From: an uncultured Alphaproteobacteria bacterium
GTDB lineage: Bacteria > Pseudomonadota > Alphaproteobacteria > Rhizobiales > Xanthobacteraceae
Assembly: GCA_963819355.1 (NCBI GenBank)
Contig: CAWFVZ010000002.1
Coordinates: 13,771 to 77,770, forward strand
Length of the DNA stretch: 64,000 bases
Direction of reading: 5' to 3'
Shown: positions 23,887 to 37,192 of the stretch, piece by piece
How positions within the stretch are numbered: position 1 is the first letter of the stretch
Layout of the letters: the number at the start of each line of letters is the position of its first letter
Made by a program: the position numbers and the translations under genes
Notes under the pieces: model-generated
What the model saw: the letters and a program-made list of their open reading frames with translations, nothing else
Told to the model about the DNA's origin: nothing
Databases searched by the model: none

Positions 23887-25950
23887 ATGAATTACGGCAT
23901 CGCGTTCACGCCGCTGGTTCCCACGATCGTCCTGTGGATCGCGCTCGCTGCGATCGTGGTCATCGCGCTCGTGCTGCTGCTCGCACGGGCGCGCGGCACC
24001 GCGGTGCGCGTGGCAGCACTTGCGCTGTTCCTGCTGGCGCTCGCCAATCCCTCCTTCACGCGCGAGGATCGCGATCCCCTCACCTCGATCGCCGCCGTGA
24101 TCGTCGACAAGAGCCCGAGCCAGAATTTCGGCAAGCGCAACCAGGAGGCCGCGCAGGCCCAGGAGGCGCTGGTCGACAGCCTGAAGAAGATCAAGGGGCT
24201 CGAGGTGCGCGTCGTCGATGCCGGACAGGCCGACGGCGAGACCGACGGCACCCGTCTGTTCGGCGCGCTGGCCTCCACGCTTTCGGACGTGCCGGTCGAT
24301 CGCGTCGCCGGCGCGTTCCTGATCACCGACGGCCGCGTTCACGACATCCCGGCCAACGCCGCCGCGCTCGGCTTCCAGGCGCCGATACATGCGCTGATCA
24401 CCGGGCAGAAGGACGAACGCGACCGGCGCATCGCGATCACGGCAGCGCCCCGTTTCGGCATCGTCGGCCAGAACCAGACCATCACCTACCGGCTCGACGA
24501 CCAGGGCGTCACTGGCGAGCGCGCCAAGGTGACGGTCCGCCGCGACGGCGAGGTCATCAACGAGCGCACGCTCTCGAGCGGTCAGACCGCAAGCGTCGAC
24601 GTCGAGATCAAGCATGCCGGCCCGAACATCGTCGAGATCGAGGCCTCACCGCTCGAGCGCGAGCTGACGCCGGTGAACAACCGCGCCGTCGTCGCCATCG
24701 ACGGCGTGCGCGACAAGCTGCGCGTGCTGCTGGTCTCCGGCGAGCCGCATTCCGGCGAACGCACCTGGCGCAATCTCTTGAAGTCCGACGCCAGCGTCGA
24801 CCTCGTGCACTTCACGATTCTGCGTCCGCCGGAGAAGCAGGACGGCACGCCGATCAACGAATTGTCGCTGATCGCGTTTCCGACCCGCGAGCTGTTCCAG
24901 CAGAAGATCAACGAATTCCAGCTGATCATCTTCGACCGCTACGCCCGCCAGGGCGTGCTTCCGATCGCCTATTTCGACAACATCGCGCGCTATGTGCGCT
25001 CGGGCGGCGCCGTGCTGGTCTCGGCCGGCCCCGACTACGCCTCCAACACCAGCATCTGGCGCACGCCGCTGGATTCGGTGCTGCCGGCAGAGCCCGTCGG
25101 TGTGACCGAGAAGCCGTTCTATGCGCATCTGTCCGACGTCGGCAAACGTCATCCGGTGACGCGCGGGCTGGAAGGCTCGGCAACCGAGCCGCCGCACTGG
25201 AGCCGCTTCTTCCGCACCGTCGATACCCGCAATTCCGTCAACCCGCCGGTGATGACGGGCGCGGACGGCAAGCCGCTATTGTTCCTGACGCGCTTCGGCG
25301 AGGGCCGCGTCGCGCTCTTGCTGTCCGACCACATCTGGCTGTGGGCGCGCGGCTATGAAGGTGGCGGCCCGCATCTCGATCTCTTACGGCGGATGTCGCA
25401 CTGGCTGATGAAGCAGCCGGACCTCGACGAGGAAGCGCTGCGCCTCCAGGTGCAGGGCAAGGATCTCGTGGTGGTGCGTCAGACCATGGCGGACAGCGTC
25501 CAGCCGGTGAGCGTGACCTCGCCCTCCGGGGTCTCGCATGATCTGACGCTCAGCCCTGGCGACCCCGGCGAGTGGCGCGCCAGCCTGCCGGCCAGCGAGC
25601 TCGGCCTGTGGCAGGCGACCGATGGCACGCTGAAGGCGCTGATCAATGTCGGCCCGACCAATCCGAAGGAGTTTTCGGAAGTCACCTCCACCACCGAGAC
25701 CCTGAAGCCGCTGACGCAGGCCACCGGCGGCAACGCGGTGCGGATCGCGGATGGCTCCAGTGTCGAGCTGCCGCGCATCGTCCCGGTGCGATCGGCGAGC
25801 GTATTTGCAGGCGACGGCTGGATGGGGATGCGAATGCGCGACGCCAGCGTCGTGAAGGGCGTCGGCGTGCTGCCGATCTTCGCCGGGCTGATCGGGCTCC
25901 TGCTGCTGCTCGGCGCGTTCACCGCGACCTGGGTCCGCGAAGGACGCTGA
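23887..25950 (+). CDS. conserved membrane protein with VWA-like and class I glutamine amidotransferase-like domains
   Basis: VDKSPSQ, LITDG, VLLVSGEPH, translationally linked to the upstream operon. Confidence 0.75.
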   Translation: MNYGIAFTPLVPTIVLWIALAAIVVIALVLLLARARGTAVRVAALALFLLALANPSFTREDRDPLTSIAAVIVDKSPSQNFGKRNQEAAQAQEALVDSLKKIKGLEVRVVDAGQADGETDGTRLFGALASTLSDVPVDRVAGAFLITDGRVHDIPANAAALGFQAPIHALITGQKDERDRRIAITAAPRFGIVGQNQTITYRLDDQGVTGERAKVTVRRDGEVINERTLSSGQTASVDVEIKHAGPNIVEIEASPLERELTPVNNRAVVAIDGVRDKLRVLLVSGEPHSGERTWRNLLKSDASVDLVHFTILRPPEKQDGTPINELSLIAFPTRELFQQKINEFQLIIFDRYARQGVLPIAYFDNIARYVRSGGAVLVSAGPDYASNTSIWRTPLDSVLPAEPVGVTEKPFYAHLSDVGKRHPVTRGLEGSATEPPHWSRFFRTVDTRNSVNPPVMTGADGKPLLFLTRFGEGRVALLLSDHIWLWARGYEGGGPHLDLLRRMSHWLMKQPDLDEEALRLQVQGKDLVVVRQTMADSVQPVSVTSPSGVSHDLTLSPGDPGEWRASLPASELGLWQATDGTLKALINVGPTNPKEFSEVTSTTETLKPLTQATGGNAVRIADGSSVELPRIVPVRSASVFAGDGWMGMRMRDASVVKGVGVLPIFAGLIGLLLLLGAFTATWVREGR

Positions 25951-26029
25951 TCGTTGCACGAACGACACATCGAGCAGCCGGCCCGCGCGGGCCGCTGCGG
26001 CGGCGATTGACATCCGTTCATCGTTCGAG

Positions 26030-26050
26030 CGATGTTACAATATTACATCG
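26030..26050. promoter_or_regulatory. Fur-family (Zur-like) box overlapping a TTGACA promoter
   Basis: CGATGTTACAATATTACATCG palindrome, with TTGACA at 26007. Confidence 0.6.
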
Positions 26051-26097
26051 CGACGTCAGGGGATTGGCGTCACGCGATGCGCGGGTGGCATTTCCAG

Positions 26098-26490
26098 ATG
26101 AAGTGGTTCCGGTCGAATATCAGGCACGGCGCCCGGCTCGCGATGTTCGCGATGCTGGTGCAGTTCGCACTGACGTTCGGCCACAGCCACTGGTTCGCCC
26201 AGGCCGCCCCCCTCGCACAATCTCAGCTGAGCGACAGCGCGATCGCTTCGATCGACCGCGTCGCGGTCCAGAAGAAGTCACCCGCAGCCCCCGACCGCGA
26301 GCAGCCGGGCGACGACAATTGCGCGATCTGCGCTTTGGTCGCGATGGCCGGCACGGTCATGTTCGCGACGCCGCCCTTGCTGCTGTTGCCGCAGGCGGTC
26401 GAACTGCTTTACCGCACCACCGATGCCGAATTCATCCATCTGGAATCGGCCAGCACGGCTTTCCAGCCGCGTGCCCCTCCCGCCTCCTGA
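26098..26490 (+). CDS. DUF2946 (CruR/CutF-like) leader protein
   Basis: N-terminal hydrophobic helix, CAIC motif, C-terminal QPRAPPAS-stop. Confidence 0.85.
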   Translation: MKWFRSNIRHGARLAMFAMLVQFALTFGHSHWFAQAAPLAQSQLSDSAIASIDRVAVQKKSPAAPDREQPGDDNCAICALVAMAGTVMFATPPLLLLPQAVELLYRTTDAEFIHLESASTAFQPRAPPAS

Positions 26491-26640
26491 TCCCCATCGA
26501 TTGAGCTGCCATCGGGTTAGGCCGTGCGTTCAAGCCGACCCCGCAAGGCTTTCGAAATTGATCCGTCGCGTAGCGATGGCGCGTGCCGCCTGCCAAGCCT
26601 CGAAAACGAGCGCGGCGGTGTGCGATCGGAAATCAGGACA

Positions 26641-28914
26641 ATGCGGTCTCCCAAACCAATATTGGCGGGCACAAGCATCGCCGCACTCACGCTGTTCCAT
26701 CTCGGTAGCAGCGCCATGGCGCAGACCGCAACGACGCCCACCGTCACGACGCTGCCCAGCGTCGAGGTCGATGCGCCCAAGCGGACGCAGGCGCCGCGCC
26801 GCCCCAAGGTTCGCGTCGCCGTCGAGAAGCGACGTGCAACCCCGCAGGCACGGCCGCAGACCGACGCGCCGGCCACGGTCGAGGGCCAGAGCGAACGGCT
26901 CGACGCCGCGCGCCAAAGCGTCCTTCCGCCTGGCGGAGCCACGGCTCATACGCTCAATCGCCAGGCGATCGAGGCGCTGCCTCAGGGCACCAATGCCTCG
27001 CTCGACAAGGTGCTGCTGCAGTTTCCCGGCGTCACGCAGGATTCGGCGGCGAGCGGCGACCTGCATGTCCGCAACGAGCACGCCAATCTGCAATATCGCA
27101 TCAACGGCGTCATGCTTCCCGACGGCGTCGGCGCATTCGGGCAGATTCTCGACACCGGCATCGTCGGCAGCCTCAGCCTGCTCACCGGCGCGCTGCCGGC
27201 ACAATATGGCCAGCGAACGGCAGGGGTGCTGGACATCCAGACCAAGGCCGACGCCTTCAACAATTCGGGTGTCGTCGGCGTCTATGGCGGCAGCAACGGC
27301 ACCATCTCGACCAACGTCGAATATGGTGGGACGGCCGGCCAGACCCAGTATTTCCTGTCGGGACGCTTTCTTCAGAACAATCTCGGCATCGAGAACCCGA
27401 CCCCGTCGGTCAATGCGATTCACGACCGCACCAACCAGGAGAAGGGATTTCTCTATCTCTCGACGATGATCGATCCGACCAGCCGCCTCACCTTCATGAG
27501 CGGCGTGTCGAACGCGACATTCCAAGTTCCGAACAATCCCGGCCAGACGCCGAATTTCACGGCGTTCGGCGTCTCGAATTTCGACTCGTCCCGGCTCAAC
27601 GAGCACCAGAACGAGTTCAATCAATTCAATGTCGTCTCCTACCAGACATCGAACGGCGAGTTCGACACCCAGACCTCCTACTTCAACCGCACTAGCCAGT
27701 TGCACTTCTATCCCGACCCGGTCGGCGATCTCGTGTTCAACGGTGTGTCCTCGGACGTCTATCGCCAGAGCGTGGTCAACGGCATCCAGCAGGACATTTC
27801 GTGGCGCGTCGGCTATGCGCACACGCTGCGCTTCGGCCTTTCGGTGAGCGCGGAGCGAACGCTGGTCAACAGCGGGACCACGGTGCTGCCGCTGGTCGAT
27901 CCCGCGGACCCGACGGCGGGCACGATCGACGCTCCCTTCTCGGTGTTCGATTCCAGCGCCAAGACCGGCTGGCTGATCGGGACCTACGTCCAGGATGAAT
28001 GGAAGATCACCAACAATCTGACGCTCAACGCGGGCCTGCGCTTCGACCAGATGTACCAATATGTCGACGCAAACCAGCTCAGCCCGCGCGTCAGCCTGAC
28101 CTGGAAGCCGTTCGATGGCACCACGTTCCACGCGGGCTATGCGCGCAACTTCACCCCGCCCTCACAGGTGATCGCCGCACCGGTCAATCTCGCGCTGGTG
28201 ACCCCGCCCGGCGCGCCTGCCAACACGCAGACGCCGGAGGTCGCGCAGAACAGCCCGGTCCTGCCGGAGCGGTCGCACGTGTTCGACATCGGCGTGGTGC
28301 AGAAGATTGATCCGGTCCCCGGTCTCGAGGTCGGCGTCGACGCCTACTACAAGAAGGCGCGCGACCTGCTCGACGACGGCCAGTTCGGCGCGGCTTATGT
28401 GCTGAGCGGCTTCAACTATGATCGCGGCGAGAATGTCGGCGTCGAGCTCAAATCGACCTACCGCAACGGCAATTTCAGCGCTTACGCCAATCTGGCCTGG
28501 GCCAAGCAGATCGCAACCAATGTCGTCTCGAACCAGTATCTGTTCGGCGCGGATGAGCTCGCCTATATCGCGGGCCATTACGTCTACACCGACCACGCCC
28601 AGATGCTGTCGGCATCGGCCGGCGCCTCCTATCTCTGGGAAGGAACGCGCTACAGCGTGTCGATGATCTATGGCAGCGGCCTGCGCTCGGGCTTTGCCAA
28701 CACCGATCATCTGCCGGGCTACACGCAGGTGAATCTCGGCCTGTCGCATGACTTCAACATCGTCGCACCGAACAAGCCGACGACGCTGCGCTTCGACGTG
28801 GTTAATGTGTTCGACACGATCTACCAGATCCGCGACGGCTCCGGCATCGGCGTGTTCGCCCCGCAATACGGACCGCGCCGCGGCTTCTACTTCGGCGTCT
28901 CGCAGCAGTTCTAG
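26641..28914 (+). CDS. TonB-dependent receptor
   Basis: Signal peptide, TonB-box-like LPSVEVDA, plug motif QFPGV...LHVR, NAGLRFD, and terminal Phe. Confidence 0.92.
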   Translation: MRSPKPILAGTSIAALTLFHLGSSAMAQTATTPTVTTLPSVEVDAPKRTQAPRRPKVRVAVEKRRATPQARPQTDAPATVEGQSERLDAARQSVLPPGGATAHTLNRQAIEALPQGTNASLDKVLLQFPGVTQDSAASGDLHVRNEHANLQYRINGVMLPDGVGAFGQILDTGIVGSLSLLTGALPAQYGQRTAGVLDIQTKADAFNNSGVVGVYGGSNGTISTNVEYGGTAGQTQYFLSGRFLQNNLGIENPTPSVNAIHDRTNQEKGFLYLSTMIDPTSRLTFMSGVSNATFQVPNNPGQTPNFTAFGVSNFDSSRLNEHQNEFNQFNVVSYQTSNGEFDTQTSYFNRTSQLHFYPDPVGDLVFNGVSSDVYRQSVVNGIQQDISWRVGYAHTLRFGLSVSAERTLVNSGTTVLPLVDPADPTAGTIDAPFSVFDSSAKTGWLIGTYVQDEWKITNNLTLNAGLRFDQMYQYVDANQLSPRVSLTWKPFDGTTFHAGYARNFTPPSQVIAAPVNLALVTPPGAPANTQTPEVAQNSPVLPERSHVFDIGVVQKIDPVPGLEVGVDAYYKKARDLLDDGQFGAAYVLSGFNYDRGENVGVELKSTYRNGNFSAYANLAWAKQIATNVVSNQYLFGADELAYIAGHYVYTDHAQMLSASAGASYLWEGTRYSVSMIYGSGLRSGFANTDHLPGYTQVNLGLSHDFNIVAPNKPTTLRFDVVNVFDTIYQIRDGSGIGVFAPQYGPRRGFYFGVSQQF

Positions 28915-36994: not shown

Positions 36995-37135
36995 GTGCGT
37001 GCTCTCTCTCGACATTTATGACAGTGCATTGCGAAGTGCGTGACATGAGCTAAACGCGAGAAAGAGAAGTTCGTATAGAGGCCTTGTATTTGAATGGTGA
37101 TGTCATGTAACATAAGAACATGTAATAGATGTAAT

Positions 37136-37152
37136 TTTGTAAAGTTTGTAAA
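37136..37152. promoter_or_regulatory. putative RamB-type sites
   Basis: Two TTTGTAAA units in the AT-rich aceA/ramB divergent region. Confidence 0.5.
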
Positions 37153-37192
37153 AATATAGGTCAATAAGACTGCCCTTAGTGGCTGTGGAGAC

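Follow-up and report, generated by a model that had tools for sequence, protein, structure and literature searches.

One of the closest described systems to the locus considered here is the cruR-crtA(bfrG)-bp2921 operon of Bordetella pertussis (Roy et al. 2022, PMC9426467; Hachmi et al. 2026, PMC12914433), whose leader CruR has been shown to arrest the ribosome (PMC12992588) and whose family, DUF2946/CruR, is characterized by a spacing of 45 ± 2 residues between its CxxC and RAPP motifs. The operon found in the window, i.e. the 64,000-nucleotide stretch of DNA analysed in this work, shares with cruR a DUF2946 leader with an export signal, a CxxC motif, the spacing of about 45 residues and a C-terminal RAPP, as well as the gene order, with the leader gene first, then a long spacer and then a TonB-dependent receptor gene. 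The two operons differ in other respects. That of Bordetella responds to copper, and no site for a transcriptional metalloregulator has been described for it, its authors stating only that a Fur site is lacking; it has a PepSY_TM gene in third position, whereas the window operon has a predicted Zur box, no PepSY_TM gene and a receptor of an unrelated subfamily.

With respect to the predicted Zur box, the closest precedents are from Caulobacter crescentus, where Zur operators overlap the -10 elements of the zinc receptor genes znuK, znuL and znuM (Mazzon et al. 2014, PMC4176598), and where the znuK/znuGHI site is bound by purified Zur in EMSA (PMC4176598). Like the candidate site in the window, the znuK, znuL and znuM operators are 19-nt inverted repeats with a GTTA-N5-TAAC core at promoters of TonB-dependent receptors. 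The second half-site of the candidate reads TTAC where those of Caulobacter read TAAC, and the comparison covers the operators; further, the Caulobacter receptors have no DUF2946 leader gene in front of them in that report (PMC4176598), unlike the receptor studied here. In R. leguminosarum, znuA and zniCBA bear Zur boxes, and mutation of zur derepresses them.

A DUF2946 gene of C. crescentus, CC2720, heads the Zur-activated czr/zntA zinc-efflux operon (PMC4176598). As in the window, the DUF2946 gene comes first in its operon and a Zur-binding sequence lies 5' of it; in contrast to the window, the CC2720 site lies 5' of the -35 element, Zur acts as an activator, the operon serves efflux and no binding by Zur was seen in vitro. 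The published accounts consulted on DUF2946/CruR and RAPP leaders of receptors are copper-related and mention neither zinc nor Zur, CC2720 being the only zinc/Zur link to DUF2946 that we found in print. The initial annotation had suggested that a Zur-controlled DUF2946 member would be a new variant. Because the published leaders are copper-related and CC2720 is the only printed link to zinc, we consider a Zur-repressed CruR-type leader-receptor operon to be a new combination of two known things rather than a new kind, with CC2720 as a partial precedent.

The genome that contains the window (7.6 Mb, 63.8% GC, 40 contigs) is a soil/rhizosphere metagenome assembly, and its sequence was found in 23 sequencing runs of soil/rhizosphere DNA and in one metatranscriptome (5% of sampled words, as contigs). 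The candidate site lies in a gap of 147 nt between an upstream gene that ends at 25950 and the DUF2946 gene. In the direction of transcription, the order is a -35 hexamer, a spacer of 18 nt, the box, a stem-loop, the leader gene, a gap of about 150 nt and the receptor gene, as follows:

26007-26012, plus strand: -35 promoter hexamer TTGACA, by direct reading; (G)TTGACA is conserved 16-18 nt 5' of the box in 17 of 17 box-bearing loci of the genus.
26029-26051: full palindrome around the predicted Zur box, imperfect and AT-rich.
26031-26049, no strand assigned: predicted Zur box, 19-nt operator core GATGTTACAATATTACATC, from matrix score, palindrome arms and conservation.
26031-26036, plus strand: candidate -10 hexamer GATGTT, weak and spaced 18 nt from the -35 hexamer, proposed from spacing only.
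26046-26079, plus strand: 5'-leader stem-loop, an inverted repeat with arms CATCGCG (26046-26052) and CGCGATG (26073-26079).
26098-26490, plus strand: DUF2946 (CruR-like) leader gene of 130 codons, Pfam PF11162.
26524-28914, plus strand: TonB-dependent receptor, longest open reading frame, with Pfam TonB_dep_Rec_b-barrel (1.1e-32) and Plug domain matches.

Direct reading of the sequence confirms both the TTGACA hexamer at 26007 and the 21-bp palindrome reported in the initial annotation, the latter being CGATGTTACAATATTACATC G at 26030-26050. A repeat search returned perfect 7-nt arms, GCGATGT (26029-26035) and ACATCGC (26045-26051), separated by 9 nt, with AATATT at the centre (26039-26044); over the 23-nt span, 9 of the 11 arm pairs are complementary. 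The 19-mer GATGTTACAATATTACATC occurs once in the window even when three mismatches are allowed, and none of 100 shuffles matched it. The placement of the palindrome over the -10/+1 region, as first proposed, is consistent with the conserved spacing to the -35 hexamer, but a canonical -10 was not recovered: a strict sigma-70 scan of 25800-26700 called no promoter, and in the 16-18 nt range downstream of TTGACA there is no good TATAAT, this position being taken by GATGTT, the first six bases of the box. GATGTT retains A2 and T6 of TATAAT and is not called by the strict scan. The box is thus placed over -10/+1 on account of the conserved -35 spacing and not of a recognisable -10 or a mapped start, and it is from this spacing that we infer promoter occlusion.

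On the combined evidence of motif class, position and conservation set out below, the palindrome is very probably a Zur operator on the promoter of the DUF2946 leader-TonB-dependent receptor operon. To score it, a matrix was derived from zinc-uptake operons of the same family. The znuC orthologues of 30 genera were taken, and the 600 nt 5' of each were searched, without a sequence model, for the most palindromic AT-rich 19-mer; after iterative refinement, the de novo box nATGTTATAnTATAACATn was found 5' of znuC in 28 of the 30 genera, at distances from znuC of 170-350 nt. The training znu operators (28 loci) score 21.5-38.4 bits. Scored with a matrix made from the znuC-upstream boxes of 26-28 other genera of the family, the candidate reaches 27.9 bits and ranks second of 7.6 million positions across the whole 7.6-Mb genome. 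With the full matrix, the genome's own znu operator scores 35.2 bits and the third-best match 17.0; with the candidate's own genus left out, the top five scores are 34.9 (own znu operator), 28.0 (candidate), 17.1, 16.6 and 15.3 bits. The znu operator and the candidate are the only sites in the genome above 18 bits, and a match at the candidate's level is expected by chance at most 0.03 times per genome.

The candidate has one mismatch to the 8-base GTTA-N5-TAAC core, and its departures from the consensus, GTTACA and TATTAC, are both present in genuine znu operators. On the znu-operator matrix the C. crescentus znuK site scores 28.9 bits, compared with 27.9 for the candidate, and the CC2720 site scores 1.6. 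The site in the window thus shares its motif class with the znu operators of its family and with a Caulobacter site proven by EMSA. The matrix score bears out the Zur-box reading of the initial annotation: at 28 bits on a matrix built from the znu operators of other genera, the candidate is second only to the znu operator itself.

Genome matches at or below 17 bits were rejected as background since the genes that flank them, i.e. those for a GntR regulator and a solute-binding protein and radical-SAM, amidohydrolase and acetolactate-synthase-type genes, have no zinc link. A separate observation concerns an AT-rich divergent intergenic region of the window, at 37016-37192, which carries repeated (A)TGTAA(C/T) units (CATGTAACATAAGAACATGTAATAGATGTAATTTTGTAAAGTTTGTAAAAATA) and gives weak Zur-matrix matches of 12.9 and 9.7 bits. 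It is flanked by a minus-strand gene of 551 codons and by a plus-strand gene whose product begins with an XRE-like helix-turn-helix, and is probably an operator array of another regulator rather than a Zur site. In the znuC loci of two other genera (L026 and L035), the family Zur box is absent 5' of znuC, and the two share another palindrome, (A)GATACTCT(A/G)TATC, at about -210 to -225, which may be a diverged Zur box or the site of a different regulator.

The genome contains one ZnuA-family gene, which lies in a minus-strand operon composed of a small His-rich open reading frame, znuC, znuB and znuA, with ATACGTTATATTATAACATTACG directly 5' of the operon. It encodes three Fur-family proteins, i.e. 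one of the Fur type, an Irr and one of the Zur type. The operator and the candidate regulator are located as follows:

G000 C40:347440-347458 (L005:6441-6461): znu operator of the same genome, 35.2 bits.
L003:1363-1890 (G000 C4): Zur-type gene, 176 aa, best NCBIfam match NF008646 (Zur) at 119.9 bits.

The score of the Zur-type protein, which has two CxxC pairs, is below the NF008646 equivalog cut-off of 167 bits. The znu operator is of the same motif class as the candidate, the two having the core ATGTTAnAATATnAC in common; it differs in being nearer to the consensus and in being followed by a His-rich 78-codon open reading frame and znuCBA, not by a RAPP leader. This 78-codon frame (L005:6199-6435, minus strand, G000 C40; MVPAAPHAHHHDHSHGHHHDHAHLHGHDHSHAHVHD..., with a hydrophobic tail) heads znuCBA directly 3' of the znu Zur box, and its stop overlaps the znuC start. 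Its conservation is suggested by runs of His codons at the matching position in another genus (L012) together with the 170-350 nt that separate box and znuC across genera.

Of 60 genomes sampled from the genus, 26 contain receptor homologues, and in 17 of the loci fetched from them the box occurs just 5' of the leader gene, with scores of 13-37 bits. Together with two loci from a family-level sample (one of them from the same genus), these make up 19 related box-bearing loci, in all of which the box holds a fixed position: GTTGACA precedes it by 16-18 nt, and the conserved start of the leader follows it at 41-58 nt. In a box-anchored alignment, (G)TTGACA and the leader start are conserved while the other flanks diverge; the exact half-site pattern ATGTTAT/ATAACAT is conserved across the loci. 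In other genera of the family sample, the box stands before more divergent leader-receptor pairs (19-35 bits) and, in two further genera, directly before receptors that have no leader (about 21 bits). The family-level search was more informative in this regard than an order-wide receptor search (301 genomes, E ≤ 1e-80, three candidates scored per genome), which returned only the candidate's own genus.

The box is absent from sister DUF2946-receptor loci with other leader subtypes, which score below 0; a class-wide sample of 22 DUF2946 loci likewise lacks it, with no score above 3 bits. A quick tree built from 44 receptors has box-bearing members in several clades and requires the box to have been gained or lost at least four times, which implies that the link between box and receptor is recurrent or labile and is not the trait of one clade; the notion of a single zinc subfamily of receptors was rejected on these grounds. 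The genome itself has a second DUF2946 leader-receptor locus (L132:2251-5100, minus strand, equivalent to G000 C17:547750-550600). Its leader matches PF11162 at 50.9 bits and ends in ARGPPQFS, its receptor is an unrelated TonB-dependent receptor, 23% identical to that of the window, and the Zur box is absent there, the best score being -4.5.

The 5' arm of the stem-loop overlaps the 3' end of the predicted operator. Covariation in 19 loci supports the helix, which is 84.6% paired, compared with 27-45% in controls with a slid partner; six of the seven pairs change on both sides, and none of 500 shuffles reaches the observed score. The stem-loop is compatible with transcription that begins within the box; as a hairpin at the 5' end it may stabilise the transcript, or it may link operator and leader.

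The leader matches PF11162 at 39.1 bits (cut-off 23.7). Its sequence comprises a hydrophobic segment at the N-terminus, FGHSHW, CAIC and, after a spacer of 46 residues, a RAPP that lies three residues before the stop, the protein ending in FQPRAPPAS. Because the start ATGAAGTGG (MKWFRSN) is conserved across the loci and an in-frame ATG at 26077 lacks such conservation, translation of the window leader is taken to begin at 26098 and not at 26077. Every leader of this receptor family, whether or not its locus has the box, carries an FGHxH motif at the point where the N-terminal hydrophobic segment ends; this motif is not among the hallmarks listed in the CruR paper.

The longest open reading frame of the receptor opens at a GTG (26524), but its start is likely the ATG at 26641 (Met40), which begins the signal-peptide-like MRSPKPILAGTSIAALTLFHLGSSAMA. 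About 150 nt separate the leader stop from this start, close to the published cruR-bfrG distance of 162 nt. Against NCBIfam, no specific family reaches its cut-off, and the best weak matches are to haem-type subfamilies. A single-sequence search of the PDB gave nothing at E ≤ 1e-5 and CirA fragments only at E ≤ 5, while a profile of 21 sequences found only CirA-type and other generic barrel segments. No relationship to ZnuD, OprC or solved TonB-dependent transporters was found in this set, which may lack the 2026 CrtA structure; as the PDB matches are generic, they do not allow assignment as a zinc or a copper receptor.

The gene that follows the receptor is convergent in the window and in the majority of box-bearing loci of the genus, and the operon is therefore bicistronic. 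In one box-bearing locus the receptor is followed by a DUF1007 gene (L057:3180-3830, plus strand); DUF1007 genes recur in predicted Zur regulons. ExbB-family genes follow the receptor in many loci of other genera, whether or not these have the box (L053, L061, L071, L072, L074, L078 and L080).

The metal sensed by the leader is a question separate from the identity of the operator. FGHxH and CxxC could, judged from the sequence, form a His2Cys2 site, and it may be, as we propose only tentatively, that the leader of the Zur-boxed subfamily senses zinc, not copper, via such a site. The alternative that comes closest is that Zur binds the box but that both the cargo and the signal for the leader are copper, the receptor being a CruR-type importer of copper or of a copper/zinc metallophore, with import allowed only under zinc starvation or with copper exerting a veto during zinc scavenging. 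We regard this as possible, though rather doubtful. Copper is the signal for every characterized receptor leader of the DUF2946 or RAPP kind, and the window leader retains both the CxxC and the CxxC-RAPP spacing of CruR (46 compared with 45 residues). In an alignment, leaders with and without the box have the same FGHxH, D-x-CAIC and F-Q-x-R-A/G-P-P motifs, and no difference in candidate ligand motifs was found between the two groups; hence the sequence offers no argument for zinc over copper sensing, and the earlier proposal that the system is not copper-linked is left without support. Against a copper importer, the operon contains none of the copper genes looked for (PCuAC, Sco, CopC, YcnI and PepSY_TM), and the receptor matches neither the OprC type (TIGR01778 is not among its NCBIfam matches) nor a solved receptor in a PDB set that may lack the 2026 CrtA structure; further, Zur control in itself points to a demand for zinc. 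A copper veto on a metallophore receptor that is induced by zinc starvation is nonetheless a serious alternative.

That the box is instead an operator of Fur/Mur (manganese or iron) or of Irr (iron/haem), with the receptor an iron- or manganese-regulated importer, is improbable. Fur-type and Irr proteins are both encoded in the genome, the latter scoring 213.8 bits on NF045678 and having the GCPWHD haem motif; the boxes of Fur-family regulators are all AT-rich 19-nt palindromes, and the weak NCBIfam matches of the receptor to haem-type subfamilies would be in keeping with such a role. The consensus sequences, however, fit poorly: at its best position in the intergenic region, the classical Fur box AATGATAATnATTATCATT has 9 mismatches in 18 positions, and the Bradyrhizobiaceae Irr ICE consensus TTTRGAAYNRTTCYAAA has 6 in 16. 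In addition, the only other genomic site of the motif class belongs to the znu zinc-uptake operon, and the same matrix gives a proven Zur site 28.9 bits. Assignment of the palindrome to the Zur type rather than to another branch of the Fur family, as in the initial annotation, is upheld by these comparisons. That the palindrome is just an AT-rich part of the promoter, or an inverted repeat that arose by chance, and serves no dedicated regulator is scarcely credible, for although the position of the palindrome fits the expected -10 and start, its AT-richness would aid promoter melting and no separate -10 hexamer can be recognised, the low chance expectation, the conservation of the half-sites while the flanks diverge, the occurrence of the same pattern 5' of znuC in 28 genera and the loss of the box from sister loci all argue against it.

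Taking the palindrome as a Zur operator, the most likely working of the operon is classical Zur repression by promoter occlusion combined with arrest-peptide control of the CruR type. When zinc is sufficient, zinc-loaded dimers of the Zur-type protein (encoded at L003, G000 C4) would bind the box and exclude RNA polymerase; when zinc is short, Zur would depart and the operon would be transcribed, from a start that is probably inside the box, yielding a transcript that would bear the conserved 5' stem-loop. The CruR-like leader, with its export signal, FGHxH, CxxC and RAPP, would then provide a second gate on the receptor, one that would work post-transcriptionally by ribosome stalling, as has been shown for CruR in Bordetella. 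The two layers of control put forward at the outset, repressor and stalling peptide, are consistent with the presence of an operator on the promoter and of a DUF2946 leader with CxxC and RAPP, and are inferred from these features.

A conserved Zur operator on such a promoter would connect the zinc-starvation response of Bradyrhizobium and related genera to a leader family for which only copper control has been described; the accounts consulted give no transcriptional metalloregulator for CruR/DUF2946 operons. The two-layer design of repressor and arrest peptide is clean and testable. The receptors, which form an uncharacterised family, are candidates for the import of zinc or a metallophore in a genus that matters to agriculture. 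The boxed and box-free loci, along with the two DUF2946-receptor loci within one genome, constitute a comparison set for the metal specificity of the leaders, the second locus providing a natural contrast pair within the same genome. If the leader does sense zinc, the operon would be under two-compartment control, with Zur reporting on cytoplasmic zinc and the exported nascent leader on periplasmic zinc; the leader would be the first zinc-responsive ribosome-arrest peptide, and the receptors of soil Bradyrhizobium would represent a new family for the uptake of zinc or zincophores.
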